Below are positions 1 through 62,512 of a stretch of 64,000 bases of DNA, one piece after another (the stretch's first letter is position 1; the number at the start of each line of letters is the position of its first letter). Origin of the DNA: Squalus acanthias. Its lineage: Eukaryota. Below the pieces are notes generated by a model. It was not told where the DNA came from, made no database searches, and worked only from the letters and a program-made list of their open reading frames with translations. The position numbers and the translations under genes are program-made. The DNA is taken from NCBI GenBank assembly GCA_030390025.1, contig CM059428.1:168516001-168580000 (forward strand). The letters are read 5' to 3'.

Positions 1-513
1 GACAAATTGCTACTTTCTTGTGAGCTGATTAATTTCTGTCAGACTGAACTGAAGAATGTTATAATTTGCTATAACAGTTTAAGCATGTCACAGGACCATA
101 CACCCTAACTATGTCTGACGAGAAAACTGGTCTCCTACCCATTCTTAATTTAGTCCATATCGAGTGCATCACAAGTAGACACTCCATATCTACGTAATTC
201 CAGACTTCGCTGCAAGCTTCACAGAAAGTTGAATTTAGTTTAGAATACTTTTTCCAATGCATATACTAATATTTCAAACTAATGTCACACTAATGGGTAA
301 AAAATATAGAACATTGACTGTAAAATATATTGCAATTTCAATCTCCCAAAAAAGTGCTGGCTTTCATAAAATGTGGAGCTATTTAGAGCTAAAATATAAC
401 GTATAATTTGAACAAGGAAGCTATGTTGCCAACAATTATGGATAAAGTGTTGGATAAAATCTTGAGAGTATGGACAATAAACTATTCATTAACAGTAATG
501 GTTGTTGTCCTAC

Positions 514-543
514 CCTTCACTTTTAGGAAACCCATTGTCTGCT
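514..543 (-). pseudogene. 3' remnant of an Ig exon (QTMGFLKVK plus donor), truncated by a CR1 insertion
   Basis: Matches the 3' end of exon 4799-5065 and its GTAGGA donor; CR1 ORF1 sequence begins at 544. Confidence 0.85.
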
Positions 544-3500
544 TGTGGGAGCCGGTGGACCCCACTGAGGCTCACGGCGATTACATCTGTGACAGGTGTC
601 TGCTGCTACAGGATCTCCAGCTCCGTGTTGATGAGCTGGAGTCTGAGCTTCAGACACTGCGACACATCAGGGAGGGGGAGAAGTACCTGGACTCTGTGTT
701 TCAGGAGGTGGTCACACCTATGAAGTTAATTAATTCAGATGTAGCCCATGGTCAGCGACAGGACGGTGTGACTACGAGTGAGGCAGGTACGGGGATCCAG
801 GAGGTAGTGTTGGAGGAGCCGCAGCCCTTGCTCTCGTCCAACAGGTTTGAGGTTCTTACTCCCTGTAGGGGACAGGAGCAGGGACTGCAGGGAGGATGAG
901 CAACTTGGCCACAGCACCGTGGAACGGGGGGCCATTCAAGAGGGGGGAGTAAATAGAAATGTTGTAGTGGTAGGGGATAGTATTATTAGGGGGATAGATA
1001 AGAGTTCTCTGCAGCCGAGAGCGAGAGTCCCGTAGGCTGTGTTGCCTGCCCGGTGCCAGGGTTAAGGACATCTCCTCTGGGCTGGAAAGAAACTTGCAGT
1101 GGGAGGGGGTGGATCCAGTTGTCGTGGTCCATGTTGGTACAAACGACGTAGATAGGACAAGAAAGCCGGTTCTGTTAAAAGAGTATGAGCAGCTAGGGGT
1201 CAAATTAAAAAACAGAACCTCAAGGGTAATAATCTCTGGATTATTACCTGAGCCACGAGCGAATTTGGCAAGGACAAATAAAATTAGAGAGTTAAATGAG
1301 TGGCTCAAAGTCTGGTGTGGGAGAAATGGGTTTTGCTTCCTGGGACACTGGCATCAGTACTGGGGCAGGAGGGAGCTGTTCCGTTGGGACGGGCTTCACT
1401 TGGCCAGTGCTGGGACTAGAGTCCTGGCGGATCATATAACTAGGGCTGTAGAGAGGGCTTTAAACTAACTAGTTGGGGGGGGGGGGGGGGGGAGGATCCT
1501 AGAGAGCAAATAATAAAAATGACAACAGAGAAGGTCATAGACTTAGGTAGCAGTGGGGAAATTAAAAACCAGAGTGTGTCAGGAAGGGGCAGAAGGTATG
1601 GAGTAAAAGGTAAAGTAATAAAAAGGGCAAAAGCAGGAACTAAGTGTCACAAAACATATTTGAAAGTTCTCTATCTGAATGCACGTAGCATTCGTAACAA
1701 AATAGACGAGTTAATGGCACAAATAACTACATATGGGTATGATCTTGTGGCCATTACAGAAACATGGCTGCAGGGTGACAATGCCTGGGAATTAAACATA
1801 CCAGGTTATTTAACGATCAGGAAGGACAGGCAGGAAGGAAGGGGAGGTGGGGTGGCTATGTTAATAAAGGAAGGAATCACTGTAATACAGAGAAATGATA
1901 TTGGGTCAAAAGATCAGGATAATGAAACAGTTTGGGTGGAGATAAGGAATAATAAGGGGAAAAAAACACTAGTGGGCGTAGTCTATAGGCCTCTGAACAG
2001 TTGCAACTCTGTTGGACGGAGTAACAATCAGGAAATAGTTGAGGCTTGTAATAAGGGAACATCTATAATTATGGGGGATTTTAACTATCATATTAATTGG
2101 ACAAATCAAATTGGGCAGGGCTGCCTTGAGGATGAGTTCATTGAGTGTATTAGGGATGGGTTTCTTGAGCAGTATGTAACTGAACCGACCAGGGGGCAAG
2201 CAACCTTAGATCTGGTCCTGTGTAACGAGACAGGATTAATTAAAAATGCCCTAGTAAAGGATCCCCTTGGAATGAGTGACCATAACATGGTTGAATTCCA
2301 TATTCAATTAGAGGGTGAGAAGGTTGGATCTCAAACAAGCATGCTAAGCTTGAATAAAGGAGACTATGAAGGTATGCGAGCGGAATTGAGTAGAGTGGAT
2401 TGGGAAAATAGATTAAAGGGTAAGACGATACATGATCAGTGGTGTACATTTAAGGAGTTATTTTACAACTTCCAAAAATAATATATTCCACTAAGAAAAA
2501 GGTGTAAAAGAAAAGACAGTCATCCGTGGCTAAGTAAAGAAATTAAGGATAGTATTCGACTAAAAACAAGGGCTATAAGGTAGCCAAATCTAGTGGCAGG
2601 ATAGAGGATTGGAAAACTTTAAAAGACAGCAAAAAATAACAAAAAGATTGATTAAGAAAGGGAAGATAGATTATGAAAGTAAATTAGCAAAAAATATAAA
2701 AACAGAAAGTAAGAGTTTTTATAGTTATATAAAAAGAAAAAGGGTGGCTAAAATAAATGCTGGTCCCTTAGAGGATGAGACCGGGAAATTAATGGTGGGA
2801 AATATGGAGATGGCAAATATACTGAATGAATATTTTGTATCAGTCTTTACAGAAGAGGACACTAAGAATATCCCAACACTGGACAAACAGGGGGCTATAG
2901 GGGGGGAGGAGCTAAACACGATCAAAATCACTAAGGAAGTGATACTCGGTAAAATAATGGGACTCAAGGCGGATAAATCACCTGGACCTGATGGCTTACA
3001 TCCTAGGGTCTTGAGGGAAGTGGCGGTAGGGATTGTGGATGCATTGGTAATCATTTTCCAAAACTCCCTGGACTCAGCAAAGATCCCGGCAGACTGGAAA
3101 ACTGCTAATGTAACACCCTTATTTAAAAAGGGCAGTAGACAGAAGGCTGGAAACTATACACCGGTTAGCCTAACATCTGTGGTAGGTAAAATTTTGGAGT
3201 CCATTATTAAGGAGACAGTAACGGGACATTTGGATAATCATAATTTAATAGGACAAAGTCAGCATGGTTTTATGAAGGGGAAGTCATGTTTGACAAATTT
3301 GCTGGAGTTCTTTGAGGAAGTAACACACAGGGTGGATAAAGGGAAACCAGTGGATGTGGTGTATTTAGACTTCTAAAAAGGCATTTGACAAGGTGCCACA
3401 CAAAAGATTATTGCTTAAGATAAAAAATCACGGGATTGGGGGTAATATTCTGGCATGGATAGAGGATTGGCTATCTAACAGAAGGCAGAGAGCTGGGATA

Positions 3501-6500
3501 AATGGTTCATTCTCAGACTGGCAATCAGTAACTAGTGGTGTTCCGCAGGGGTCAGTGCTGGGTCCCCAACTCTTTACAATCTATATTAACGATTTGGAGG
3601 AGGGGACCGAGTGTAACATATCAAAGTTTGCAGATGATACTAAGATGGGAGGGAAAGTAGTGAGTGAGGAGGACATAAAAAATCTGCATGGGGACATAGA
3701 CAGGCTAAGTAAGTGGGCAGAGATTTGGCAGATGGAATACAATACTGGAAAGTGTGAGGTTATGCACTTTGGCAGGAAAAATAGTAGAGCAAGTTATTAT
3801 CTTAATGGCAAGAAACTGGAAAGTACTGAAGTACAAAGGGATCTGGGGGTCCTGGTGCACGAAACTCAAAAGGTTAGTATGCAGGTGCAGCAAGTGATTA
3901 AGAAGGCCAATGGAATGTTGGCTTTCATTGCTAGGGGGATAGAATGTAAAAATAGGGAGGTATTGCTTCAGTTGTACAAGGTATTGGTGAGACCGCACCT
4001 GGAATACTGCATACAGTTTTGGTGTCCATACTTAAGAAAAGACATACTTGCTCTCGAGTCAGTACAAAGAAGGTTCACTCAGTTAATCCCGGGGATGAAG
4101 GGATGGACATATGAGGAGAGGTTGGGTAGATTGGGACTCTACTCATTGGAGTTCAGAAGAATGAGAGGCGATCTTATTGAAACATATAAGATTGTGAAGG
4201 GGTTGGATCGGGTGGATGCGGGGAGGATGTTCCCGATGATGGGTGAAACTAGAACTAGGGGGCATAGTCTTAGAATAAGGGGCTGCACTTTCAAAACTGA
4301 GATGAGAAAGAACTACTTCACTCAGAGGGTGGTAGGTCCATGGAATATGCTGCCCCAAAAAGCTGTAGAAGCTACATCATTACATAAATTTAAAACAGAA
4401 ATAGACAGTTTCCTAGAAGTAAAGGGAATTAAGGGTTACGGGGAGCAGGCAGGAATTTGGACATGAGTCTAGGTTCGGATTGGTCATGGCCCTGTGGGTA
4501 GCGCAGCGGGCCCAGGGGCCGTGTAGCCTGATCCTGCTCCTATTTCGTGTGTCCAATTCTGTTAGGTTCAGGAGATGGTTCTGTGATAGTAGATTGGCAG
4601 TTAGGATCAGATCAGCCATGATCTTATTGAATGGCGGAGCAGGCTCGAGGGGCCAATTGGCCTACTCCTGCTCCTATTTCTTATGTTCTTATGAACAAGA
4701 AATCCATATCGCCAACAATTATGGATAAAGTGTTGAAAAAAATCTTATGAGAAGATGAACAATAAATTAATCATCAAGAGTAACGATTGTTGTCCTACCC
4801 TTTACTTTTAGGAAGCCCATTGTCTGCTGATCCCCTGAATCGCAGGTATATTCTCCAGCATCTTCGACTTTTAGGCTATGAATAAGCAGCTCAACACAGG
4901 AACCCTTTTGCTTCATTTCATGCTTCTCGCTTGAATGAAGTACCACAGATCCCTTCCTCCATTCCACTGGGGCGTCTGGTTTTGTGATCTCACAGTTCAG
5001 AATGGCAGTGCCATCCTCTTCAGCTTCCTTGTTCTGAAGCTCTTGTTTGAAAAGCACAGGAAGGGCTAAGGGAGACAGTAAATTAGGTCTCGATGATGTA
5101 CTTCAGTTATGGTTCAAAACTGATTTCTGAACACCCACAAAACCTCAAACAAGCTCACTAAAACAATGTTTGAGGAAGTTATTCAATTTTTTGGTTCTGC
5201 GAGCATTCCTGAACATTGTTCTTACGGTTGTTGACCTTTGACTTGCTGGACTGGATTACACCTTGCTGGTAACTGACAAATTGCTACTTTCTTGTGAGCT
5301 GATAAATTCAGTCAGCCTGAACTGAAGAATGTTATAATTTGCTATAACAGTTTAAGTATGTCACAGGACCATACACCTTAACGATGTTTGACGAGACAAC
5401 TGGTCTCCTACCCATTCTTAATTTAGTCCATATCGAGTGCATCACAAGTAGACACTCCATATCGACGTAATTCCAGACTTCGCTGCAAGCTTCACAGAAA
5501 GTTGAATTTAGTTTAGAATATTTTTTCCAATGCATATACTAATATTTCAAACTAATGTCACACTAATGGGTAAAAAATAAAGAACATTGACTATAAAATA
5601 TATTGCAATTTAAATCTCCCAAAAAAGTCATAGTCATAGAGTCATAACGGCACAGAAGGAGGCCATGTGGCTCATCGAGTCCGTGCTGGCTCTCTGAAGA
5701 GCAATCCAGTCAGTCCCATTCTCCCCGCTCTATCCCCGTGGCCCTGCAAATTTGGGCGCGATCTTGCCAGCCCTGGGGAGGCGGGCTAGCCGGGAAAACG
5801 GCAGAATGTGGGGGCAGGTGCCCATCCCGCCTCCGTGCCATCTTCCCAGGAGGCGGGTCGCCGACCTGCGCCGGGTCCCGTCTCCTGGAGGCGGGAAGGG
5901 GATTACAGCCACTTAACTGCCTGTTAACAGGTAGTTAACAGGCAGATAAGAGGATTATCCCCATTTTACCCACACAAGTGCGGGCTTCCCGGAGGCTGCG
6001 AACCTCGCCAGGGTCACCGAGGCGAGCAGTGGGTCTGCGGGGTGCAAAAGAGCGCTGTGAAGGTAAGTGAATGGTGCAAGTGTGGAGAGGTGAGTATATG
6101 AGGTAAGTGAAAGTGTTAGAAAAAGTTTACTTACCTTTGTTTCTTCCTGCAGGCTTCAATTGTTGGGGATGCGGAGAGTCTCGCATCTCCGCGGCAGAGA
6201 TGACAGATGGCTGCTGCATTCTCCAATGCAACAACCATCTAATTTCTGCTAAAAAATGAGGTTTGATGAGTCTTGAATACAAGAACTCATCAAACTACAG
6301 AGAATGTCAGCGTTTGACAGCTTCACAGAGCTGTCAAACGATGACAATTCATCTGTCAATGCGCTGACGTTCTCTGTAACCGGCTTCCCCTTAATTGGCC
6401 TGCTAAGCCCGCTGGGCGGGCTTAACAAGGTCAATCAAGGGAAAATAGCGTGGGTTGGCCACAAGTCGATGGAGGCGGGACTAAAACCCGACAAGTGGGA

Positions 6501-21500: not shown

Positions 21501-24500
21501 TTATTCCCAACTGCAATTCCACCCTTTCAATGCACTGCAGGTTACAAGGAGCTATCTCTAACCTTTGCTGATAGATTCCAGCCTACTAGGGATGATGTAA
21601 CGTCACTACATGACCCTCTGTTTAGGAAAGGTTTTGTTTGCCTTACCTTTTACTTTTAAGGAGGCAGTTGTCTGTTCATCCCCAGAGTCACAGGTGTATT
21701 CTCAGCATCTTCAAGTTTTAAGTCATGAATAATCAGCTCAACGCTAGAACCTTTTTGTTTCATTTCATATTTGTTATTGGGCTCAAGTAGCACAGATCCT
21801 TTTTTCCATTTTACAGGAGCATCAGGTTTGGTCAGCTCGCACTGCAATGTGGCAACACTCCCTTCTTTATGCTCTTTATTCTGAAGCTTCTTCTTGAAAA
21901 GCACTGGAAGCGCTAGAACAGTAAATTGAAGCAATTTCTTGATTAAGTGCCTCCAAAGAACTTCTTCACAGCTACATTTTATGAATTAGCAAATGTGTAT
22001 GCTCACTAGACAAGATGAAATAACTGTTCACATGAATAACAACTTATATATTTTCATACACAATTAAAATTATAGATAGATGCGCATGATTACAAGATTT
22101 CCTTGCACATATTAGATAAAATAAAGTTATTATGAAACATGCTGCCTTCCATATTTGAGCAACAAATGGTGAAACAAGAGAATTCTTACTCTCTCTTCTA
22201 ATAAAGCAATCCTCTACATTGGATTAGCCCCGTCATCCAACTGAAGAAAACAGATGGTCTTTATTTCCTTAAGAGCTTATGGTATCATTGTCAACATGAT
22301 GGTTTCCCTCCTCATACAGCCAACCATCTTAGCACCTGAGGTCACTTCTCAATTCTCTTCAGCTAAAGAGTCTGGCAATAGCAGCACAGCCAATGGAAGT
22401 GTTGTAAAAATAACAAATGCTAAATGAGGATTTTTTTATGGCAGTAATTAATCCCAAGATAATTATAGATAAAGAATATAATTCAGCCTATCTTAACTCA
22501 CCCTTCCAGAAAAACCTGAATGCTTCACAGCAATATAGAACTACTCTTCCCATAGAGTCATGGAATGTTACAGCACAGAAAGAAGCCACAGGGACGTTAT
22601 CAGACAAAATTTGATACCGAGCCGCATAGAGATATTAGGACAGGTGAATAAAAGCTGCTTGGTCAAAGAGGTAGATTTTAAGGAGCATCTTAAACGACGT
22701 CTCGCTCTCGCTGCACCAAGATCGACCTAACAAGAAGAAGTACCAGAGGAAGAAGCCGCTGAGCGGAGCAATCGAGACCGACTGCGTGTGGGGTCTGGCT
22801 AGTGTAGAGGCGGCGGACCTGGATGGAGCGGCTGCGGCGAGGCAGAGCAAATAAAAGAGGCGGCGGCGACCAGGTAGGCCCACAGAGGCGGCGGACCTGG
22901 GTGGAGCGGCTGCGGCGAGGCAGAGCAGATAAAAGAGGCGGCGTCGACCAGGTAGGCTTACCAATCTGAGCCCCGAGAGCGGGAGAGAGAGAAGTAAAAA
23001 ATAATCAAAGTGTGACGTCACCAGAAAGCAGGTAAGTGATTGGTTGGTGAGTATTTCTCTTTTTCCATACTTAAATTCTGTGGTTTATAGTTTCTAGAGT
23101 CTCTGTGGTGTAGCGGGGACTGCTGTTAAGCAAGGGGCCCTTGAGTATATCATTTAATTGATGTGAAATTGGTGGGATTCAATAAGTTTAATTTTAATTA
23201 ATTAATTAAAGGGTAAGTCATGGCAGGAGAGCTCGGTGCCGTGATATGCTCCTCCTGCTATATGTGGGAAATCAGGGACGCTTCCTGTATCCCTGACGAC
23301 CATGTGTGTGGGAAATGTATCCAGCTGCAGCTACTGACGGACCGCATTGCGGCGCTGGAGCTGCGGATGGATGCATATTGGAGCATTTGCGACGCTGAGA
23401 ACGTCGTGGATAACACGTTTAGCGAGTTGGTCACACCGCAGGTAAAGGGTGTACAGGCAGGAAGTGAATGGGTGACCACCAGGCAGAGTAAGAGGTGCAG
23501 GCAGGTAGTGCAGGGGTCCCTGTGGCCATCCCCCTCTCAAACAGATATACCACTTTGGATGCTGTTGGGGGGGGATGACTTATCAGGGGAAGGCGGCAGC
23601 AGCCAACTTCCTGGCACCATGGGTGGCTCTGCTGCACAGGCTGGGAGGAAAAAGTGTGGAAGAGCTATAGTGATAGGGGATTCAATTGTAAGGGGAATAG
23701 ATAGGCGTTTCTGCGGCCGCAAACGAGACTCCAGGATGGTGTGTTGCCTCCCTGGTGCAAGGGTCAAGGACGTCTCGGAGCGGCTACAGAACATTTTGGA
23801 GGGGGAGGGCGAACAGCCAGTAGTCGTGGTGCACATAGGCATCAACGATATAGGTAAAAAACGGGATGAGGTCCTAAAAGCAGAATATAGGGAGTTAGGA
23901 GGTAAATTAAAAAAGAGGACCTCAAAGGTAGTAATCTCAGGATTGCTACCAGTGCCACGTGCTAGTCAGAGTAGAAATAGGAGGATATTTCAAATGAATA
24001 TGTGGCTAGAGGAATGGTGCAAGGGGGAGGGATTCAAATTCCTTGGACATTGGAACCGGTTCTGGGGGAGGTGGGACCAGTACAAACGGGACGGTCTGCA
24101 CCTGGGCAGGGCCGGGACCAATGTCCTAGGGGGAGTGTTTGCTAGTGCTGTTGGGGAGGGTTTAAACTGAAGTGGCAGGGGGTTGGGAACCTGAGCAGGG
24201 AGACAGAGGAAAGGGAAACAAGGATAAAAGCTAAAGACAGGAAGGAGAAAAACAAAAGTAGAAGGCAAAGAACTCAACGGTTTAAATCAAACATGGTCAT
24301 AGTAAATAATAATTCATATAGGTCTGAAAGCGTTAAAAAAACAAGCCTGAAGGCTTTGTGTCTTAATGCAAGGAGCATTCGGAACAAGGTGGATGAATTA
24401 GCTGCGCAAATAGAGGTAAATGAATACGATTTGATTGGGATTACAGAAACATGGCTCCAGGGTGGCCAAGGCTGGGAACTCAACATCCAGGGTTATTCAA

Positions 24501-27500
24501 TATTTAGGAAAGATAGGCAAAAAAGAAAGGGAGGTGGGGTAGCATTGCTGGTTAAAGAGGGGATTAACACAATTGAAAGGAAGGATATTAGCTCTGATGA
24601 TGCGGAATCTGTATGGGTAGAACTGAGAAATAACAAGGGGCAGAAAACGTTAGTGGGAGTGGTATACAGACCCCCAAACAATAATACGGAGGTTGGGGAC
24701 GGCATTAAAAGGGAAATTAGAGAAGCATGCAGTAAGGGCACAGCAGTCATCATGGGTGACTTTAATTTACATATAGATTGGGCTAACCAAATTAGTAAAA
24801 ATACTGTGGAGGAGGAATTCCTAGAATGTTTACGAGATGGTTTTCTGGAACAATATGTCGAGGAACGAACCAGAGATCGGGCCATCTTAGACTGGGTATT
24901 ATGTAACGAGAAAGGATTAATTAGCAATCTTGTTGTACGAGGCCCCTTGGGTCAGAGTGATCATAAGCGGGGGAAGTTATAATGGGGAACAAAGAAATGG
25001 CAGACCAATTAAATGCATATTTTGGTTCTGTCTTCACAAAGGAGGACATAAATAACCTCCCAGAGATGTTGGAGAACATACGGTCTGATGAAAGGGAGGA
25101 ACTGAAAGAAATCAGTATTTGCAGGGAAATGGTGTTAGGGAAATTGACGGGATTGAAGGCCGATAAATCCCCAGGGCCTGATAATCTACATCCTAGGGTA
25201 CTTAAGGAAGTGGCCCTAGAAATAGTAGATGCATTGCTGATCATCTTCCAACATTCGATGGAATCTGGAACTGTACCCATGGATTGGAGGGTAGCCAATG
25301 TTACCCCACTATTCAAAAAGGGTGGTAGAGAGAAAGCGGGGAATTACAGACCGGTAAGCCTGACATCAGTATTGGGGAAAATGCTAGAGTCCATTATAAA
25401 GGATGTAATAGCTGAGCACTTGAAAAACAGTGACAGGATCGGACAAAGTCAACATGGATTTACAAAAGGTAAATCGTGCTTGACTAATCTACTGGAATTT
25501 TTTGAGGATGTAACTGGGAAAATAGATAAGGGAGAACCAGTAGATGTGGTGTATTTGGACTTTCAAAAGGCTTTCGATAAGGTCCCGCATAAGAGATTAG
25601 CGTGTAAAGTTAAGGCACATGGGATTGGGGGCAAGGTATTGACTTGGATAGAGAACTGGCTGGCGGACAGAAAGCAGAGAGTAGGAATTAATGGGTCTTT
25701 TTCCGAGTGGCAAGCAGTGACTAGTGGGGTACCGCAGGGATCGGTCCTTGGACCCCAGCTATTCACAATATACATTAATGATCTAGATAAGGGAACTAAA
25801 TGTAATAACTCCAAGTTTGCAGATGACACAAAGCTGGCTGGGAGTGTGTGCTGCGAGGAGGATACCGAGAAACTCCAGGATGATTTGGACAGGTTGGGTG
25901 AGTGGGCAGAAGCGTGGCAGATGCAATATAACTTGGATAAATGCGAGGTTATCCACTTTGGTGTCAAAAACAGAAAGGCAGACTATTATCTGAATGGCAA
26001 TAGATTGGGAGAAGGGGACGTAAGCATGCAGGTGCAGCAGGCGGTAAAGAAGGCAAATGGTATGTTGGCCTTCATAGCGAAAGGGTTTGAGTATAGGAAC
26101 AGGGATGTCCTGCTGCAGTTGTACAGGGCCTTGGTGAGACCACACCTTGAGTACTGTGTGCAGTTTTGGTCGCCTTATCTGAGGAAGGATGCTCTTGCCA
26201 TGGAAGGAGTTCAGCGAAGATTCACAAGGCTGATACCTGGGATGGCAGGAATGACATATGAGGAAAGATTGGGTCGATTGGGCTTATACTCGCTGGAGTA
26301 TAGAAGAATGAGAGGGGATCTCATCGAAACATATAAAATTCTGACAGGTCTGGACAAACTAGATGCAGGAAGAATGTTCCTGATGGTCGGAGAGTCCAGA
26401 ACCAGGGGTCATAATCTAAGGATAACGGGTAAGCCATTTAGGACAGAAATGAGGAAGAATTTCTTCACCCAGAGAGTGGTGAACCTGTGGAATTCTCTAC
26501 CACAGAAGGTAGTTGAGGCCAAGTCATTAAATATATTCAAGAATGAGTTAGATATATTTCTTAAAGCTAAAGGTATCAAGGGATATGGGGAGAAGGCAGG
26601 TACAGGGTACTGAGTTTGGATGATCAGCCATGATCTCATTGAATGGCGGAGCAGGCTCGAGGGGCCGAATGGCCTACTCCTGCTCCTATCTTCTATGTTT
26701 CTATGTTTCTACGAGAGAGTGGTAGAGGCAGACAGGTTTAGGGAGGGAATTCCAAAGTTTAGGACCTAGGCAGCTGAAGGCACGGCCACCAATGGTGAAA
26801 TGAAGGAAATCGGGGGTTGCACAAGAGGCCAGAATTGGAGGAGCGCAGAGATCTTGGAGGGTTGTAGGTGGTTACAGAGATAGGGACGGGCGAGGCCATG
26901 GAGGGATTTGAATACAAGAATGAGAATTTTAAAATCGTGGCGTTGCTGGGCAGGGAGGCAATGTAGGTCAGCGAGCACAGGGGTGATGAGTGAACAGGAC
27001 TTGGTGCAAGTTGGGAGGTTCTCAAGTGAGTCCGGGAGGGTGGAAGGAGGCAATTCGGGAGGCGAGTGAGTGGTGTCCGGCAGGAATCCGCGGTTTTAAT
27101 GTGGATCTGGGATGAGTGTTCCTACTCTTCCTGGCTCCACATTAAGAACATAAGAACATAAGAAATAGGAGCAGGAGTAGGCCAATCGGCCCTTCGAGCC
27201 TGCTCCGCCATTCAATAAGATCATGGCTGATCTGATCCTCACCTCAAATCTAAAGAACACAAGAAGTAGGAGCAGGACCTGGCCACTCAGCCCCTGGGCC
27301 CGCTACGCCACCCACAGGGCCTCGACCGATCCGAACTCAGCCTCATGTCCAATTTCCTGCCCGCTCCCCGTAACCCCTAATTCCCTTTACTTCTAGGAAA
27401 CTGTCTATTTCTGTTTTAAATTTATTTAATGATGTAGCTTCCACAGCTTCCTGGGGCAGCAAATTCCACAGACCTACTACCCTCTGAGTGAAGAAGTTTC

Positions 27501-30500
27501 TCCTCATCTCAGTTTTGAAAGAGCAGCCCCTTATTCTAAGATTATGCCCCCTAGTTCTAGTTTCACCCATCCTTGGGAACATCCTTACCGCATCCACCCG
27601 ATCAAGCCCCTTCACAATCTTATATGTTTCAATAAGATCGCCTCTCATTCTTCTGAACTCTAATGAGTAGAGTCCCAATCTACTCAACCTCTCCTTGTAT
27701 GTCCACCCCCTCATCCCGGGGATTAACCGAGTGAACCTTCTTTGTACTGCCTCGAGAGCAAGTATGTCTTTTCTTAAGTATGGACACCAAAACTGTATGC
27801 AGTATTCCAGATGCGGTCTCACCAATACCTTATATAACTGCAGCAATACCTCCCTGTTTTTATAATCTATCCCCCTAGCAATAAAAGCCAACATTCCGTT
27901 GGCCTTCTTGATCACCTGCTGCACCTGTATACTAACTTTTTGATTTTCTTGCACTAGGACCCCCAGATCCCTTTGTACTGCAGTACTTTCCAGTTTCTCG
28001 CCATTAAGATAATAACTTGCTCTCTGATTTTTCCTGCCAAAGTGCATAACCTCACATTTTCCAATATTGTATTGCATCTGCCAAATCTCCGCCCACTCAC
28101 CCAGCCTGTCTATATCCCCTTGTAGGTTTTTTATGTCCTCCTCACTTTCTACTTTCCCTCCCATCTTTGTATCATCTGCAAACTTTGATATGTCACACTC
28201 GGTGTAAGGTGCGTAAAAAACATTAGATTTACCTTTAAGGATCGCTGGTTTGGCTGCTGTGCGTCTGGGAAAACTGACTGCAGCATGTACGGCGCATGCT
28301 GTGGTCAGTCGTAAACAGATTTTACAAAGGAGCCTGAAGCAGACACTAGGACTCCGATTTGCATAACTTTCAGGCGTGCGGCACACTTCCATGGAAACAT
28401 AGAAGATAGGAGCAGGAGTAGGCCATTCGGCCCCTCGAGCCTGTTCCGCCATTTAATGAGATCATGGCTGATCATCCAAATTCAGTACCCTGTCCCTGCT
28501 TTCTCCCCATATCCCTTGATCCCTTTAGCCTTAAGAAATATATCTAACTCCTTCTTGAATATATTTAATGAATTGGCCTCAACTGCCTTCTGTGGTAGAG
28601 AATTCCACAGGTTCACCACCGGTATGGAATGTGCACGTGCGTGCCACACACAATATAGGGTCTATAACAATGTCCCCTGTAAGTTTTTTTTGGGCCATGT
28701 CGACCCGTTACGTGGCAGCGCAGCCCATTCAAAATTCCGCTCATGCGCGGTTTTTTCAAATTTAAAAGCCAGCTTCCGGCCGCGCGGGAGCTCAAGAGCG
28801 CTGCGCATCCGCACAGCTTAAAGGGAACATTGGTCCACAGCACCTGTTTTTCACCAAAAAACACAGCCATTACACAATCAAATTTCTAGGCCATTATGTT
28901 GCGCAACCTTTAAAAACTTTTCCATACGGCGCAAATCTAAACTTATATGTAAAGAAAAGAAAAACATGAGGAAAATGAATTCAGTACCAACAGAGACAAC
29001 ACGATAATAAAAAAAATTAACAGAATTCAAATAGCATAAGAAATACTAAAGGTTGATTTTACGAATGTGCCTCTGGTACAGACTTTCACCCAGTTAAGCT
29101 CATTTTGGGAATTCGAGTGTTGCATTAAGCAAGCCCTGCAGGATTTTATCATAGAATAGTGCAGCACAGAAGGAGGCCATTCGGCCCATTGAGTCTGCGC
29201 CGGCTCTATGTTTGCAATTGTTATCACTAATCAATATAGCACCTACAGGTGGTTTCTAAGACAACTTAATTATGTCTTTCCATTATTTTTATATTCATTC
29301 CTGGGATGTGGGCGTCGCTGGCAGCGCCAGCATTTAATGCCCATCCCTAATTGCCCTCGAGAAGGTGGTGGCGAGCTGCCTTCTTGAACCACTGCAGTCC
29401 GTGTGGTGAATGGACTCCCAACAGTGCTGTTAGGGAGGGAGTTCCAGGATTTTGACCCAGCGACGATGAAGGAACGGCGATATATTTCCAAGTCTTACAG
29501 TTGTTACACAGTACCTTTCATGTATTTTCAGGACTTTTTATAACATGAAAGTCAAAATAAAGTTTAAAATATAATTACTCCTTAATTTCAAAAAATGAAT
29601 TGTCTTTATTATACAAGTGATAATTGTTTCAAAGCCAGTCTTCAAATCAAATTATTAAAATGGTCACAAATATATGACCTAAATTGATTTTTGTATGAAA
29701 TTCACCTCTGCCTAACTGTTTCTTAAGAGAAGACTGACTTCCAATATTATACTACTTTATATGTTAAACTTTATGTAAGAGTAAAGTAAAGGCAATGGAA
29801 TTCTGTTTAGCATTTTAAATCATTCATTTTGCCAGGGAGAGAGCCATAAAGCAGGCAGCAACAAAGAGAGGAAGATATCAAAATTGCAAGAGGTGCAATG
29901 ACGTAAGAAATAAGAAAAATGAAAGAGCCCTATATAAAATGAGTGGGAGGAATGAGTAGCACAAGTAAAAGTAAATGGCAAAAGGATGGGAGAGAAAGGA
30001 AAGGTAAAAAAAGATACTGTAAAGAGAGAAACTAAAAAGGACAAGAAGAATAAAAGGTAAGACAAATATTACATTCAGTTCTCCTAATTCCATATACCCC
30101 TGCAAATTTATATAAAATCAACAGGACATGTTCTGATTATAATTGTCCTGAAAAAATCATGTGAACTACTCTCTTCAGGCAGGCAATTGAATTATATAGT
30201 CAGTCTTGATGCTCCAGGAGAATGTTTATAAGTGCTTACAAAAAAAATCATAGGATTTAACTACTATGAGTAAAGTTGATTGTCCTACCCTTCACTTTTA
30301 AGCAGCTCTTCGTCTTTTTGTCGCCAGAATCACAGGTATATTCTCCAGAGTCTTCTAGCTTTAGATGGTGAATAAGCAATTCAACACTGGAACCATTTTG
30401 CTTCATTTCATATTTGTCACTGGGATGAAGTAGAATAGATCCCATTCTCCACTCCACTGGGGCATCTGACTTAGTAAGCTCACAGCAAAGTGTGGCAGTA

Positions 30501-33500
30501 TCTCCCTCCTGAGCTTCCATATTCTCAAGCTCTTTTTTGAAGTGCACAGGCAGGGCTAAGAGAAACAATAATTTCACTGCTTAATTCAAGCGGAAGACGA
30601 CGCCGACGGATCATAAATGACACAGGCACTATTCTCACAGTTCTCCAATACCAAAACCTCTAAACTCAGAAAAGCCTGACATTATTGTATTGATAAAGGA
30701 AATGCAGTGGATGTTACATATATTTGCAAGACACATTTCATAAGGTGTTGCATAGGAAGCACAGTGTATTAAATGGAGTGTGATTGCATGGATGGGAAGT
30801 TAGTTAAAGAACAGAACAAAAAAAATTGCAATGGTTAATGGATATTTTTTGCACTGGAGGAATATAAACAGCGGTGTCCCCAGGGTCAGAGTTCAGATTG
30901 TTGCTCTTTTCAATATACGCAGATGATCAGGATTTGGGAATAGGGTACAAAGTTAAAATTTGAAGAAGATACAAATATCGGGAGTGTTGTTAACTGTCAA
31001 GATGACTGTAAGTAACTGCAGGAGGACATACATAGGTTAATAAATTGAGCACAGATGTCAGATGAAAACATTATTTCCATTGGTCAATAAATTAGTAAGT
31101 TGAGGACGTGAATTTAAGATCATCACCAAAAGAATAAAGTGAGATGTTGGCTGATTTTTAATTTTATTTAATGGGATGGTGGGACATGGAATGCCCAACC
31201 AGAAACAGCAGTAAAAGATGGGAAGTGTGTAAATATTTTTAAAAGAAAGAGCGTTTAAGTAGACCATTCTTTCAGAGAGCCAGCAGGATGCAGTGTGAAT
31301 AGCCTCAATGCCTGCTGTAAAATTTCTCAGCCAGGAATTTTCTCGGAGCTGCTCGCACTGTACTGTTGTAACGGCAGCAGAGTGGGAGGAGCTCCGAGGA
31401 AAATCCTGGTCAAAGACTCTGTTAAACAGCACCATACAAAAAAGCCATTTGCAATTACTGTGCAAGACTCCCAATTGGCTAATTTGTTGGTTCTACAGTA
31501 ATCTGCATTATTCCCAACTGCAATTCCACCCTTTCAATGCACTGCAGGCTACAAGGAGCTATCTCTAACCTTTGCTGGTAGATTCCAGCCTACTAGGGAT
31601 GATGTAACGTCAATATACGACCCTCTGTTTAGGAAAGGTTTTGTTTGCCTTACCTTTTACTTTTAAGGAGGCAGTTGTCTGTTCATCCCCAGAGTCACAG
31701 GTGTATTCTCCAGCATCTTCAAGTTTTAAGTCATGAATAATCAGCTTAACGCTAGAACCTTTTTGCTTCATTTCATATTTGTTATTGGGCTCAAGTAGCA
31801 CAGATCCTTTTTTCCATTTTACAGGAGCATCAGGTTTGGTCAGCTCGCACTGCAATGTGGCAACACTCCCTTCTTTATGCTCTTTATTCTGAAGCTTCTT
31901 CTTGAAAAGCACTGGAAGCGCTAGAACAGTAAATTGAAGCAATTTCTTGATTAGGTGCCTCCAAAGAACTTCTTCACAGCTACATTTTACGAATTAGCAA
32001 ATGTGTATGCTCACAAGACAACATGAAATAACTGTTCACATGAATAACAACTTATATATTTTCATACATATAGATGCACATGATTACTACAAGATTTCCT
32101 TGCACATATTTGGTCATAGATAAAATAAAGTCATTGGGACAGAAATTCGGCTCCCTGGCTTCCCACGGGTGCAAGGATCGCCCACGCACCTACCTACCGC
32201 GCCTGCCGTTGACCTCTGGGCCCACGGGGACTTCGGCTCCTGGGCCTCCCCCAACTGCCGGCGCGCAGTGTTTGTGTATCCCAGGGGCGTAGTTTGTGCG
32301 ATGCGTCACCTGGGATCACATGGGCCATGGAGAGGCAATGGCAGCAGACCATCTTTCATTCATAGATTTGACAGGAAGAGCTGTCAAATCTATGAATACT
32401 GATCGGCCCCAAAATATCCCTAAAACTACAAATACATTTTTTAAAAAACATCACATTTTTAAAATAACTATAAATTACATTAATTAATTATTTTAAACAA
32501 AAATTTAAATTTTTGAAAAAATTAATTACATTTTTTAACAGGGCTAAAACTAAACTTTCCTTTCTTTAAAGTAATTAAAAAAGATAAATCTGTGAAAAAA
32601 ATGTTTAAATTTTAATAAAATCAACAATTACCTTGTTAAAAGAAGGCCTTGCGCATCCTTTTTAAAAGTGTATCTTCTCCGTGCTTACCTTCACGGAGGA
32701 ACCTGTAAAAAAAATCCGAAGTGCGAGGCGAACGCGCTGGCCCTCCGGCGTGCGCGTTCGACCTCTGAACCCCTTTCCTCAGGGGAACGGAAGTGCCGGT
32801 TTCCCACGCATGCGCAGTGCATGCAAGAAACCGGCACTTTCGTTCCGTCCACGGGTGAGTATACAGTGCGTACTCACCCGACAACAGCCGAATTTCGGCC
32901 CCATTATGAAACATGTTGCCTTCCATATTTGAGCAACAAATGGTGAAACAAGAGAATTCTTACTCTCTTTTCGAATAAAGCAATCCTCTACATTGGATTA
33001 GCCCCGTCATCCAACTGAAGAAAACAGATGGTCTTTATTTCCTTAAGAGCTTATGGTATCATTGTCAACTTGATGGTTTCCCTCCTCATACAGCCAACCA
33101 TCTTAGCACCTGAGGTCACTTCTCAATTCTCTTCAGCTAAAGAGTCTGGCAATAGCAGCACAGCCAATGGAAGTGTTGTAAAAATAACAAATGCTAAATG
33201 AGGATCTTTTTATGGCAGTAATTAATCCCAAGATAATTATAAAGAATATAATTCAGCCTATCTTAACTCACCCTTCCAGAAAAACCTGAATGCTTCACAG
33301 CAATATAGAACTACTCTTTCCATAGAACCATGGAATGTTACAGCACAGAAAGAGGCCACAGGGACGTTATCAGACAAAATTTGAGAGATATTAGGACAGG
33401 TGAATAAAAGCTGCTTGGTCGAAGAGGTAGATTTTAACGACGAGAGAGTGGTAGAGGCAGACAGGCTTAGGGAGGGAATTCCAAAGTTTAGGACCTAGGC

Positions 33501-36500
33501 AGCTGAAGGCACGGCCGCCAATGGTGAGATGAAGGAAATCGGGGGTTGCACAAGAAGTCAGAATTGGAGGAGCGCAGAGATCTTGGAGGATTGTAGGAGC
33601 TTACAGAGATAGGGACGGGCGAGGCCATGGAGGGATCTGAATACAAGAAAGAGAATTTTAAAATCGAGGTGTTGCTGGGCCGGGAGGCAATGTAGGTCAG
33701 CGAGCACAGGGGTGATGAGTGAACAGGACTTGGTGCAAGTTGGGAGGTCCTCAGGTGAGTCCGGGAGGGTGGAAGGAGGCAAGTGAGTGGTGTCCGGCAG
33801 GAATCCGCAGTTTTAATGTGGATCTGGCAAGAGTGCTCCTGGCTCCACATTAAGGTAAGTAAAAAACATTAAACTTTCCTTTAAGGATCGCTGGTTTGGC
33901 TGAGAAAACTGACTGCAGCATGTACAGCGCATGCTGTGGTCAGTCGTAAACAGATTTTACAAAGGAGCCTGAAGCAGACAATAGGACTCCGATTTGCATA
34001 ACTTTCAGGCATGCGGCACACTTCCGGTATGGAATGTGCACGTGCGTGCCACACACAATATAGGGTCTATAACAATGTCCCCTGTAAGTTTTTTTGGGCC
34101 GTGTGGACCCGTTAACGGGCAGCGCAGCCCATTCAAAATTCCACTTATGCGCGGTTTTTTCAAATTTAAAAGCCGGCTTACCGGCCGCGCGGGAGCTCAA
34201 GAGCGCTGCGTATCCGCACAGCTTAAAGGGACCATTGGTCCACACACCTGTTTTTCACCAAAAAACACAGCCATTACACAATCAAATTTCTAGGCCATTA
34301 TGTTGCGCAACCTTTAAAAACTTTCCCATACAGCGCAAATCTAAACTTATATGTAAAGAAAAGAAAAACATGATGAAAATGAATTCAGTACTAACAGAGA
34401 CAACACGATAATAAAAAAAATTAACAGAATTCAAATAGCATAAGAAATACTAAAGGTTGATTTTACCAACGTGCTTCTGGTACAGACTTTCGCTCACTTA
34501 AGCTCATTTTGGGAATTCGAGTGTTGAATTAAGCAAGCCCTGCAGGATTTTATCATAGAATAGTGCAGCACAGAAGGAGGCCATTCGGCCCATTGAGTCT
34601 GCGCCGGCTCTATGTTTGCAATTGTTATCACTAATCAATATAGCACCTACAGGCGGTTTCTAAGACAACTTAATTACGTCTTTCCATTTAAAAAAATTAA
34701 TTCCTGGGATGTGGACGTCGCTAGCAAGGCCAGCATTTATTGCCCATCCCTAATTGCCCTCGAGAAGGTGGTGGTGAGCTGCCTTCTTGAACCGCTGCAG
34801 TCCTTGCGGTGAAGGTACTTCCACAGTGCTGTTAGGGAGGGAGTTCCAGGATTTTGACCCAGCGACGATGAAGGAACGGCGATATATTTCCAAGTCTTAC
34901 AGTTGTTACACAGTACCTTTCATGTATTCTCAGGACTTTTTATAACATGAAATAGTCAAAATAAAGTTTAAAATATAATTACTCCTTAATTTCAGAAAAT
35001 GAATTGTCTTTATTATACAAGTGATAATTGTTTCAAAGCCAGTTTTCAAATCAAATTATTAAAATGGTCACAAATATATGATCTAAATTGATTTTTGTAT
35101 GAAATTCACTCTGCCTAACTGTTTCTTGTTCAAGAGAAGACTGACTTCCAATATTATACTACATTATATGTTAAACTTTATGTAAGAGTAAAGTAAAGGC
35201 AATGGAATTCTATTTAGCATTTTAAATCATTCATTTTGCCAGGGAGAGAGCCATAAAGCAGGCAGAAACAAAGAGAGGAAGATATCAAAATTGCAAGAGG
35301 TGCAATGACGTAAGAAATAAGAAAAATGAAAGAGCCCTATATAAAATGAGTGGGAGGAATGAGTAGCACAAGTAAAAGTAAATGACAAAAGGATGGGAGA
35401 GAAAGGAAAGGTAAAAAAAGACACTGTAAAAAGAGAAACTAAAAAGGACAAGAAGAATAAAAGGTAAGACAAATATTACATTCAGTTCTCCTAATTCCAT
35501 GTACCCCTGCAAATTTATATAAAATCAACAGGACGTGTTCTGATTATAATTGTCCTGAAAAAATCATGTGAACTACTCTCTTCAGGCAGGCAATTGAATT
35601 ATATAGTCAGTCTTGATGCTCCAGGAGAATGTTTATAAGTGCTTACAAAAAAAATCATAGGATTTAACTACTATAAGTAAAGTTGATTGTCCTACCCTTC
35701 ACTTTTAAGCAGCTCTTCGTCTTTTTGTCGCCAGAATCACAGGTATATTCTCCAGAGTCTTCTAGCTTTAGATGGTGAATAAGCAATTCAACACTGGAAC
35801 CATTTTGCTTCATTTCATATTTGTCACTGGGATGAAGTAGAATAGATCCCTTTCTCCACTCCACTGGGGCATCTGACTTAGTAAGCTCACAGCAAAGTGT
35901 GGCAGTATCTCCCTCCTGAGCTTCCATATTCTCAAGCTCTTTTTTGAAGTGCACAGGCAGGGCTAAGAGAAACAATAATTTCACTATTTAATTCAAGACG
36001 ACGACGGCGCAGGATCATAAATGACACAGGCACTATTCTCACAGTTCTCCAATACCAAAACCTCTGAACTCAGAAAAGCCTGACATTATTGTATTGATAA
36101 AGGAAATGCAGTGGATGTTATATATATTTGCAAGAGACATTTCATAAGGTGTTGCATAGGCTAATTTGTTGGTTCTACAGAAATCTTCATTATTCCCAAC
36201 TGCAATTCCATCCTTTCAATGCACTGCAGGTTACAAGGAGCTATCTCTAACCTTTGCTGATAGATTCCAGCCTACTAGGGATGATGTAACGTCACTACAT
36301 GACCCTCTGTTTAGGAAAGGTTTTGTTTGCCTTACCTTTTACTTTTAAGGAGGCAGTTGTCTGTTCATCCCCAGAGTCACAGGTGTATTCTCCAGCATCT
36401 TCAAGTTTTAAGTCATGAATAATCAGCTCAACGCTAGAACCTTTTTGCTTCATTTCATATTTGTTATTGGGCTCAAGTAGCACAGATCCTTTTTTCCATT

Positions 36501-39500
36501 TTACAGGAGCATCAGGTTTGGTCAGCTCGCACCGCAATGTGGCAACACTCCCTTCTTTATGCTCTTTATTCTGAAGCTTCTTCTTGAAAAGCACTGGAAG
36601 CGCTAGAACAGTAAATTGAGCAATTTCTTGATTAAGTGCCTCCAAAGAACTTCTTCACAGCTACATTTTATGAATTAGCAAATGTGTATGCTCACTAGAC
36701 AAGATGAAATAACTGTTCACATGAATAACAACTTATATATTTTCATACATAATTAAAATTATAGATAGATGCACATGATTACTACAAGATTTCCTTGCAC
36801 ATACTTGGTCATAGATAAAATAAAGTAATTATGAAACATGTTGCCTTCCATATTTGAGCAGCAAATGGTGAAACAAGAGAATTCTTACTCTCTCTTCTAA
36901 TAAAGCAATCCTCTACATTTGGATGACGGGGCTAATCCACTGAAGAAAACAGATGGTCATTATTTCCTTAAGAGCTTATGGTATCATTGTCAACATGATG
37001 GTTTCCCTCCTCATACAGCCAACCATCTTAGCACCTGAGGTCACTTCTCAATTCTCTTCAGCTAAAGAGTCTGGCAATAGCAGCACAGCCAATGGAAGTG
37101 TTGTAAAAATAACAAATGCTAAATGAGGATTTTTTTATGGCAGTAATTAATCCCAAGATAATTATAGATAAAGAATATAATTCAACCTATCTTAACTCAC
37201 CCTTCCAGAAAAACCTGAATGCTTCACAGCAATATAGAACTACTCTTTCCATAGAGTCATGGAACGTTACAGCACAGAAAGAGGCCACAGGGACGTTATC
37301 AGACAAAATTTGATACCGAGCCGCATAGAGATATTAGGACAGGTGAATAAAAGCTGCTTGGTCAAAGAGGTAGATTTTAAGGAGCAACTTAAACATCGAG
37401 AGAGTGGTAGAGGCAGACAGGTTTAGGGAGGGAATTCCAAAGTTTAGGACCTAGGCAGCTGAAGGCACGGCCACCAATGGTGAAATGAAGGAAATCGGGG
37501 GTTGCACAAGAGGCCAGAATTGGAGGAACGCAGAGATCTTGGAGGGTTGTAGGTGGTTACAGAGATAGGGACGGGCGAGGCCATGGAGGAATTTGAATAC
37601 AAGAACGAGAATTTTAAAATCGAGGCGTTGCTGGGCCGGGAGGCAATGTAGGTCAGCGAGCACAGGGGTGATGAGTGAACAGGACTTGGTGCAAGTTGGG
37701 AGGTCCTCAGGTGAGTCCGGGAGGGTGGAAGGAGGGAATTCGGGAGGCGAGTGAGCGTTGTCCGGCAGGATCCTGCGGTTTTAATGTGGATCTGGGAAGA
37801 GCGCTCCTACTCCTCCTGGCTCCACATTAAGGTGCGTAAAAATCTTTGAACTTACCTTCAAGGATCGCTGGTTTGGCTGCTGTGCGTCTGAGAAAACTGA
37901 CCGCAGCATGTAAGGCGCATGCTGTGGAATGGAATGTGCACGTGCATGCCATACACAATATAAGGTCTATAACAATGTCCCCTGTAAGTTTTTTTTGGGC
38001 CGCATGGAGCCTTTAACAGGCAGCGCAGCCCATTCAAAATTCCACTCGTGTGGTTTCTTCAATTTGAAAGCCGGCTTACCGGCCGCGCAAGAGCTCAAGA
38101 GCGCTGCACAGCTTAAAGGGAACATTGGTCCACAGCACCTGTTTTTCACCAAAAAACACAGCCATTACACAATATAATTTCGAGACCATTATGTTGTGCA
38201 ACCTTTAAAAACTTTTCCATACAGCGCAAATCTAAACTTATATGTAAAGAAAAGAAAAACCATGAGGAAAATGAATTCAGTACTAACAGAGACAACACAT
38301 AATAATAAAAAAAAATTAACAGAATTCAAATAGCATAAGAAATACTAAAGGTTGATTTTACGAATGTGCTTCTGGTACAGACTTTCACGCACTTAAGCTC
38401 ATTTTGGGAATTCGAGTGTTGAATTAAGCAAGCCCTGCAGGATTTTATCAGAGAATAGTGCAGCACAGAAGGAGGCCATTCGGCCCATTGAGTCTGCGCC
38501 GGCTCTTTTGAAGAGCAATCCAGTTACTCCCAATCCCCGGAAATTTTTTCTGCTTCAAATATTTATCCAATTCCCTTTTGAAGGCTATTATTGAATCTGT
38601 ATCCACCACCCTATCGGGCAGTGCATTCCAAATCCTAAGCACTCATTGCATAAAATTGTTTTTCCTCATGTCACCTCTGGTTCTTTTGCCAATCACCCTA
38701 AATCTGTGCCCTCTCGTTATCGACCCTTCAGCCTTTGGAAACAGTTTCTCTTGATTTACTCTATCTAGATCCTTCAAGATTTTAAACATCTTTATCAAAT
38801 CTCTCTTAGCCTTCTCTGCTGCAAGGAGAACAACTTCTCCAGTCTATCAATGTAACTGTATTCCCTCATCCCTGGAACCATTCTAGTAAATCTCTTCTGT
38901 ACCCTCTCCAAAGCCTTCACGTCCTTCCTTAAGTGTGGTGCCCAGAATTAGACACAATACTCCAGCTGGGGCTGAACTAGTGTTTTATACAGATTTAACA
39001 TAACTTCCTGGCTTTTGTACTCTATGGGCTGGATTTTGAATGACCCATGGAGTCGGGTTTGGAGGCGTGTGGGGGGTTAAATTTGCGGGGTCGGGGTTTC
39101 CGACCCCATCCCGCCTCCACGCAATTTTGACAAAATCAGTCGCGGGGTTCCCGACTCCGTCCCGCCTCCAAGAGGCAGGAGAGGCCATTAAAGCACTTTT
39201 GAAACGTTGTAGCTAGTTTAACCCTTTTCTGACGTGAAGCACGCCTGGTGTGAAACACTCCAGTGAAACCTGGCGGGAGCACAATTGGATAGCTGACTAT
39301 CAGCTGCAAGTCCACTATTACAACGGGGATGTGATGAAGGTAGGTCTCTCTCTCTCTCTCTCTCTCTCTCGCTTGCATCCAGGTCCACTCACATCAGAAG
39401 CAATGCAGACAGGTCCTCTCTCACCAGTAGCCAGACAATCTCTGAGAGCAGGCAGTCAGCAATGATGACATCATCAGAGGCGGGTTTCAGACTGAAACCA

Positions 39501-60535: not shown

Positions 60536-61344
60536 TCCAGAAGGAGGAGTCTTGCGAGGGTCTCGTGACTGGGGGTTGGGGGGAAGCCCAGTACAGTAGA
60601 GGCCCAGACTTTCCTTGTGGGGCCTGAAGGAGCTCTCCAATAAGTGCACATGCTAGAACAGCTCCATGTAATAAGACAACTCTGGAAGTCCTGCAAAAAA
60701 AACAATTAACCTTTTTGGAAAAATAGCACCAGTGCTATGGCAGTGGCGGAAGGAATCAATGCTGTCTCACCAGTGCACCGAACCTGGTGAGGAAGACATT
60801 TGCTGGTCTGAGAAAGGTTGCCAAGGTACATCTGCACACACATTGCTTAATTTTATGTGGTCTTACAAAGGATCTTAATAGCACTGCGGTTTAAGGTTAG
60901 GCAGCAGCACATATAGAAAATACACAGCACTTTGAAAACTGTTCGTGCACTATTTCTTTGTTCCTTCTCATTCTCCAGAACCTGCAAATAGAGGGTGATG
61001 GCCAAAGCTCCTATATTGGCAACACACAATGACTGACAGTTCCTTGGGTAGAGAGTCACATGTAGCAGACGGATACAGCTTCTCACACAGGATGTTTGCA
61101 CACAAAAGGGAGGAGTACTCCTGATTCTCCTGCCTCTATGAATTTTTACCCAAAAAATGGAAACTTACCTTCCTAGGCCACATCCGCATCCGGAAAACCT
61201 GAGCGAAGCAGGCCCAATTTCTCGGAGGGGACCTAAAACAGGTGTGACTACACTTCCAATGTACTTCATTGGCTGTAAAGCGCTTTGGAACATCCTGAGA
61301 TTGTGAAAGGTGCTGTATAAAATGCAAGACTTTCTTTCTTCTGG

Positions 61345-62512
61345 ATTTTCAGAAGGCCTTCGATAAGGTCCCACACAAGAGGTTGGTGAACAAAATTAGG
61401 GCACATGGAATTGGGGGTAATATACTAGCATGGATTGAGAATTGGTTAACAGACAGAAAACAAAGAGTAAGGATAAACGGGTCTTTTTCAGGATGGCAGG
61501 CTGTGACTAGTGGGGTACCGCAAGAATCGGTGCTTGGGCTATTCACAATCTATATTAATGATTTGGATGAGGGAACTAAATGGAACATTTCCAAATTTGC
61601 TGATAATACAAAGCTAGGTGGCAGTGTCAGTTGTGAAGAGGCTTCAAGGGGATCTCGATAGGCTCAGTGAGTGGGCGAGAACATAGCAGATGGAATATAA
61701 TGTGGATAAATGTGAAGTTATCCACTTTGGTAGAAAAAACAGAAAGGCAGAGTATTTCCTAAATGGTGAAAGATTGGGGAATGCAGATGCTCAAAAGGAC
61801 CTGGGTGTCCTTGTACATGAGTCACTGAAAGTGAATGTGCAGGTGCAGCAAGCCATTCGGAAGGCAAATGGTATGCTGGCCTTTATTACAAGAGGATTTG
61901 AGTACAGGAGTAAAGAAGTCTTACTCCAATTATATAGGGCCTTGGTGAGACCACACCTGGAGTACTGTGTACAATTTTGGTCTCCTTACCCAAGGAAGGA
62001 TATACTTGCCATAGAGGGAGTGCAACGAAGGTTCACGAGATTGATTCCTGGGATGGCGGGACTGTCGTATGAGAAGAGATTGAGTAAACTAGGCCTGTAT
62101 TCTTTTGAATTCAGAAGAATGAGTGGGGATCTCATTGAAGCATACAAAATTATTACAGGGCTTGATAGGGTGGATGCTGGGAGAATGTTTCCCTTGGCTG
62201 GGGAGTCTAGAACCAGGGGCCACAGCCTCAGGATAAAGGGTAGACCATTCAGGACTGAGATGAGAAGAAATTTCTTCACACAGAGGGTGGTGAATCTTTG
62301 GAATTCTCTACCCCAGAGGGCTGTGGAGGCTCAGTCATTGGGTATATTAAAAACAGAAGTCGATAGATTTCTGACAAGTAAAGGCATCAAGGGATATGGC
62401 GATCGGGCCGGTGAATGGAGTTGAGGCAGAAGATCAGCCATGATCTCACTGAATGGCGGAGCAGGTTTGAGGGGCCAAATGGCCTACTCCTGCTCCTATT
62501 TCTTATGTTCTT
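61345..62512 (+). mobile_element. 5'-truncated CR1 LINE
   Basis: RT ORFs 61383-61661 and 61690-62424, stem-loop and tail. Confidence 0.95.

Follow-up and report, generated by a model that had tools for sequence, protein, structure and literature searches.

The window (the whole 64-kb stretch of DNA that was analysed) carries a CR1 element in which ORF1 closes on a canonical slippery heptamer and ORF2 lies in the -1 frame. The question raised by this arrangement is how the ORF2 protein is made. Translation of ORF2 in two-ORF LINEs is called unclear in the literature (PMC3708506, PMC5009743). According to the original prediction, ribosomes may shift -1 at the heptamer and produce an ORF1-ORF2 fusion rather than re-initiating on ORF2. 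No description of -1 frameshifting for CR1 was found in the literature searched; classic CR1 papers may mention the ORF overlap. The available text of PMC4120745, PMC13343379 and PMC4316615 gave no mechanism of ORF2 translation, CR1 is absent from the available text of the 2016 recoding review (PMC5009743), and the one paper naming both CR1 and frameshifting applies frameshifting, in its accessible portion, to retroviruses only. Among the APE-type non-LTR elements, ORF2 of Dictyostelium TRE5-A and TRE3-A is said to need a -1 frameshift (PMC5911963). These two differ from CR1 in clade and host and have an ORF1 without a known function.

Anatomy of the CR1 copy and its junction

On the basis of its domains and 3' repeats, the main CR1 copy (Table 1) is classed as a CR1-clade LINE with a type IVB ORF1 of chondrichthyan type. 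ORF1 is composed of a Cys-rich N-terminus, a long helix and an SGNH esterase (PF13472, E 8e-13), in agreement with the zf/lz N-terminus and esterase which define type IVB ORF1 in CR1 subgroup 7 (PMC4120745). The top structural match of the predicted ORF1 model was the ZfL2-1 ORF1 esterase (4c1b, E 5e-10; PMC3905857). The nearest named relatives of both ORF1 and the endonuclease were shark and ray sequences. ORF2 contains the APE endonuclease and reverse transcriptase of CR1 elements, interrupted by a deletion; in comparison with the second CR1 of the window, it lacks about 490 nt near 24965. As this deletion throws the reverse transcriptase out of frame, the copy is dead and makes no working enzyme, and it is a mere relic of the signal. 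Its 3' terminus, with TTCTATGT x2.6, falls within the 2-4 terminal 8-bp repeats without poly(A) typical of CR1; in chicken and turtle this repeat is ATTCTRTG (PMC2817409). Vertebrate type IVB CR1s (PMC4120745, PMC13343379) are alike in ORF1/ORF2 domains and in the 8-bp terminal repeat. The target duplication flanking the main copy is 2-3 bp, and uninterrupted copies of the surrounding older repeat, which join the two flanks, were found at 37259-37585 and about 33330-33629. A segment at 28390-28619 showed 95% identity to the 3' end of the main copy, indicating that the family was active fairly recently.

Table 1. Features of the main CR1 copy and of the second CR1 junction in the window
Feature	Position	Strand	Remark
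CR1 LINE copy, both ends present	22700..26710	+	sits inside older repeat
78-nt tandem unit, 1.9 copies, 5' UTR of CR1	22806..22957	+	
ORF1, 316 aa, ends G-L-N-stop	23220..24170	+	domain and structure matches
TAG closing the -1 frame 5' of the heptamer	24143..24145	+	
U_UUA_AAC slippery heptamer (TTTAAAC)	24161..24167	+	ORF1 register GGT TTA AAC
Stop-free basic linker in -1 frame, heptamer to endonuclease	24167..24358	+	
ORF1 stop abutting the heptamer	24168..24170	+	TGA in main copy, TAA in family
G5 run, +11 after the heptamer	24178..24182	+	candidate stimulator without conserved pairing
In-frame ATG	24293..24295	+	good context AACATGG, not conserved
ORF2 APE endonuclease domain	24359..24964	+	PF03372 E 2e-13; PF14529
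Remaining ORF2 (reverse transcriptase)	24967..26613	+	PF00078 E 2e-33; out of endonuclease frame
8-bp repeat TTCTATGT, 2.6 copies, 3' terminus	26691..26711	+	no poly(A)
Heptamer and TAA (GCT TTA AAC TAA), second, diverged CR1	1459..1468	+	ORF2 in -1

The positions originally given to the TAG, the TTTAAAC in X_XXY_YYZ register and the TGA were all correct, and the -1 frame does open 15 nt 5' of the heptamer and is stop-free up to the endonuclease. Two details held in part. The ORF1 end GGT TTA AAC TGA is right for the main copy, but the family stop is TAA and the TGA is private. The ATG at 24293, taken as the start of the endonuclease ORF, lies in the -1 frame but is not conserved. TTTAAAC alone is common, with 23 occurrences on both strands of the window, and TTTAAACTRR was found 3 times against 1.2 expected, 11/100 shuffles reaching 3. 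It is the placement of the heptamer at the ORF1 end, not its mere presence, which exceeds chance in the sequence. The other CR1 of the window in which a junction is preserved (965-4543, in its wider extent 393-4543), with about 65% nucleotide identity to the main copy, has the same -1 layout. This second element belongs to another family and shows several stops and frame breaks and a G18 run 3' of its heptamer. Outside the window, the junction of the main copy is closely like the consensus row ScyCan_CR1-1a (PMC13343379). CR1 rows with heptamer and stop are present for chimaera, sharks, rays, bowfin, coelacanth, bullfrog, alligator and crocodile in the same source, where they were found by motif search and show the range only, with no count.

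Conservation of the heptamer in related elements

Scans with an ORF1 alignment, in which the search profile itself ends in LN, led to 67 fetched loci. Junction counts use 13 of these loci and the 2 window copies; the other 54 end inside ORF1, are other esterase elements or encode bacterial hydrolases. No relatives were found in viral contigs in three scans. A canonical heptamer in the zero-frame register was observed in 14 of the 15 LN/GN-type junctions, of which 13 have U_UUA_AAC and one (L002) has G_GGA_AAC. The single junction without it, L004, is a decayed copy. Six residues (G, A, H, S, C and T) occur before the 13 U_UUA_AAC heptamers, and the Leu codon is TTA in 13/13 LN junctions versus 13% usage in the ORF1s of the same loci. 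Given the peptide, the required codons would be expected with a probability of 0.02-0.06 per U_UUA_AAC locus from ORF1 codon usage, a value which must not be multiplied over loci as these are related. The -1 frame is open from the heptamer into the downstream gene, and the endonuclease was in -1 in 11/13 junctions. The exceptions, L004 and L023, have it in +1 and are decayed copies, L023 with a 7-nt gap; a further decayed copy, L003, has one late stop in the -1 frame. Across the aligned junctions of CR1 families, the heptamer and the -1 register, expected to persist by the original prediction, are not freely lost, and relatives switch between canonical heptamers.

Among the relatives, L027 shows a textbook layout, in which the heptamer precedes the ORF1 stop by 8 codons and is followed after 10 nt by a strong hairpin (z -3.6, 0/200 shuffles). 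For a frameshift reporter, the segment L027:2021-2075 is the best positive control of natural origin. In three other esterase elements, taken from the 54 uncounted loci (L018, L028, L035), the endonuclease is in the ORF1 frame and the heptamer is missing. L035:2501-3350 has esterase and endonuclease in one unbroken frame and may be a natural-looking fusion or a copy which lost its stop. In L028:1326-1744 and L046:1642 the esterase ORF1 stops at TGA CTA, a readthrough-prone context, and in L028 the endonuclease follows in the same frame, no other stop intervening. Related elements of this kind may use stop readthrough as a further route.

Variation within the family of the main copy was read over 24125-24215 from depth-weighted contigs of 4 sequencing runs, the ends of this stretch apparently carrying no listed places. 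The only variable places listed, 24160, 24169 and 24172, lie on either side of the heptamer. At 24160, Gly is changed to Asp in 6-17% in the 4 runs; 24169 G>A in 98-100% of depth gives the family stop TAA; and 24172 G>A in 53-73% of depth in the 4 runs creates an out-of-frame AUG just past the stop. No variant at >=2% was observed in the 4 runs at the synonymous heptamer positions 24161, 24162, 24164 and 24167, and no indel at the site was listed in the run contigs, which lose rare variants. In the rest of ORF1, 8/13 variable places were third positions among those listed (40 of 159 rows). The heptamer looks constrained at the RNA level, past the encoded peptide, and its conservation extends beyond what the peptide demands.

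The C-termini of ORF1 proteins were analysed in 209 homologues, of which 166 reach the C-terminus. N is the last residue in 116/166; 96 are xLN, and in 95 of them the codon of x can have U as its last base; 11/166 are xGN (10 Q, 1 S), all with an x whose codon can have G there. Among 90 representatives under 65% identity, placed on a FastTree tree, 36 were xLN, 11 xGN, 9 xKN and 34 none of these. In all nine xKN proteins x is able to end in A, and eight of them have the motif 10-12 residues before the stop. The ratio of pyrimidine-only to purine-only x was 14:1 before LN and 0:10 before GN/KN (P0198 scored as NLN). The tree points to no more than a few independent switches, with SGN next to SKN as its sister leaf and FLN placed within the QGN group, so that the nominal p of 3e-6 for this covariation is too optimistic. 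The xLN, QGN and xKN ends fit the pattern which U_UUA_AAC, G_GGA_AAC and A_AAA_AAC would impose, the A_AAA_AAC class being read from protein only and G_GGA_AAC from one DNA locus. These are three of the four shiftiest heptamers (PMC5009743). One protein, P0006, ends its ORF1 in ELN and is incompatible with the heptamer. In the ORF1 model the terminal G315-L316-N317 lies past the last helix with pLDDT under 50, which is weak evidence since termini often look so.

A clade of related esterases without terminal LN carries a DGLHP motif, and we infer a link of these relatives to ZfL2-1. Six relatives of the xKN/QGN proteins (P0146, P0149, P0156, P0169, P0126, P0153) have SFL, SFF, TFL, RFF or EFF close to where the xKN or QGN motif stands in those proteins, and these residues possibly represent U_UUU_UUA or U_UUU_UUY heptamers.

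Sequence downstream of the heptamer

Sites of -1 frameshifting usually have a stable structure a few nucleotides downstream, and protein-stimulated exceptions exist. The G-rich hairpin proposed 3' of the heptamer did not hold, its fold of -6.5 kcal/mol being not significant (z -0.1 to -0.9). RNAalifold on the first 70 nt of 9 aligned vertebrate-type junctions gave 0 conserved pairs, and family variants alter the 5' arm of the hairpin. The hairpin was rejected as stimulator on these three grounds; a stable 3' structure was found neither in the main copy nor in the 9 vertebrate-type junctions, and is present in L027. A run of >=4 G was found at +10/+11 in all 12 vertebrate-type loci which are long enough, in every case read as nnG GGG by the -1 frame, and runs of >=4 G start at 0.9% of nearby positions. 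In L002 the G-run starts at +13, and L027 is without one. A G-quadruplex was predicted in only 4/13 folds of 60 nt and is unsupported as a universal stimulator. Natural G-quadruplex stimulators were 'not currently known' in 2016 (PMC5009743), and synthetic ones work (PMC3919603). Frameshifting in pea enation mosaic virus depends on a stop located 3 nt past the slip site (PMC5009743).

The linkers between heptamer and endonuclease have 33-93 codons. Ahead of the first in-frame AUG they contain 0 stops in 283 codons, where 24.5 were expected, and the other frames contain 49/566. The absence of stops before the AUG suggests that the linker is likely translated from the ORF1 end onward.

Probable frameshifting and the alternative readings

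A programmed -1 frameshift at the CR1 ORF1 end, giving an ORF1-ORF2 fusion, is the best reading of these patterns and is probably correct. A fraction of ribosomes would slip -1 at U_UUA_AAC in the gag-pol manner, by tandem slippage of tRNA-Leu and tRNA-Asn, and make an esterase-endonuclease-reverse transcriptase fusion. The predicted junction peptide is GEGLN|LKWQG, and the fusion would have roughly 1,300 aa in intact copies. The majority of ribosomes would halt at the next codon and release free ORF1p. CR1 shares heptamer class and register with coronavirus IBV (U_UUA_AAC), Rous sarcoma virus gag-pol and pea enation mosaic virus (PMC5009743). In contrast to the viral sites, the vertebrate CR1 junctions have a G-run in place of a pseudoknot or stable hairpin, as far as folds of local, nested pairs show. 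More speculatively, the vertebrate pause might come from the adjacent stop and the G-run at +10/+11, not from a hairpin, and the G-run might be protein-bound or G-quadruplex-like.

Termination and re-initiation near the ORF1 stop, by UAAUG, by an AUG 2 nt on or independently of AUG, would yield a separate ORF2p, with the heptamer as a pause or termination signal. We consider it unlikely, although it accounts for the open linker equally well as frameshifting. SART1 and mammalian L1 have a bicistronic LINE RNA as in CR1; UAAUG is the SART1 re-initiation signal (PMC3708506), and L1 ORF2 initiation is thought to be AUG-independent (PMC5009743). UAAUG yields exactly the -1 geometry and overlaps the ORF1 stop in some shark and ray CR1s, namely a stingray family (P0233, P0263, P0264) and, judged by eye, the three shark consensus rows ScyCan_CR1-1a, SquAca_CR1-17a and SquAca_CR1-6c. 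An in-frame AUG 2 nt past the stop was found in 5/14 loci. ORF2 initiation of the SART1 type also needs an RNA structure downstream, and the first 70 nt of the aligned junctions showed no conserved fold. Against this, UAAUG is present neither in the main copy nor in its family, where no variant at 24171 reached >=2% in the 4 runs and the out-of-frame AUG after the stop is frequent. Sister families have other codons in place of the AUG, and in L001, whose family includes sturgeon sequences, the endonuclease motif is preceded by no in-frame AUG. In only 7/14 loci does the first AUG past the stop share the frame of ORF2 (p 0.15). UGGGA, a calicivirus-type motif, was found within 100 nt upstream in 4/11 loci only and was rejected as a conserved signal. 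The SART1-type signal needs no slippery heptamer, and re-initiation predicts neither the switching of canonical heptamers nor a heptamer 8-12 codons before the stop, as in L027 and the xKN proteins. The preference for a frameshift fusion over re-initiation in the original prediction passed the comparative test of heptamer and -1 frame but meets several families with an AUG at or near the stop. Both mechanisms may coexist in some families.

A motif acting on DNA or transcript without a ribosome shift (polymerase slippage of +1 nt, a splice or processing signal, or a protein site) appears very improbable. Synonymous constraint and a conserved unpaired G-run would suit a binding site, and the gene models P0031 and P0231 join ORF1 and ORF2 in a single frame. 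These models are single-member clusters and probably represent mutated copies. A site bound for its one sequence would not switch between the three best -1 heptamers in codon register, the lack of a listed indel at the site in the run contigs speaks against such a motif within the limits of those contigs, and T3A3 runs are short for polymerase slippage. Natural single-ORF fusions were seen as 2 longer matches only, one of them a fused gene model, and were not counted as evidence.

The least credible reading, in which LN is a peptide constraint and ORF2 starts by scanning or internal entry at a downstream AUG, has in its favour that the ATG at 24293 is the first AUG past the stop in the main copy (122 nt on, in good context) and that 10/11 loci have some in-frame AUG ahead of the endonuclease, but these AUGs scatter from codon 4 to 89, and the reading is largely refuted by the TTA bias, the stop-free pre-AUG codons and a ray protein of 70% identity which has Ala in place of the 24293 Met and aligns without gaps 5' of this site.

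A wider form of the frameshift reading is possible and is put forward tentatively. Esterase-type CR1s, the dominant retrotransposons of most vertebrates, might make their reverse transcriptase as a Gag-Pol-like -1 fusion from an old signal switching between U_UUA_AAC, G_GGA_AAC and A_AAA_AAC, driven in vertebrates by the adjacent stop and an unpaired G-run as an undescribed, structure-poor stimulator. If frameshifting is true, CR1 ORF2p would be attached, at a fixed ratio, to an esterase ORF1p that binds membranes, and ORF2 annotations beginning at a downstream Met would be truncated. The signal would then be a very widespread chromosomal -1 frameshift signal in vertebrates, possibly with a new kind of stimulator.

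A few other repeats and database entries were also observed. Further CR1 fragments of the window are located at 27147-28619, 40097-39780, 42583-42182, 51785-53052, 54845-55998 and 61342-62509. Another short repeat containing TTTAAAC is present in three near-identical copies at 19729, 29568 and 34972 (minus strand). Two shark-type CR1 proteins, P0009 and P0246, carry the species names Pseudomonas aeruginosa and Aeromonas cavernicola, come from short contigs and are likely host contamination in public assemblies.
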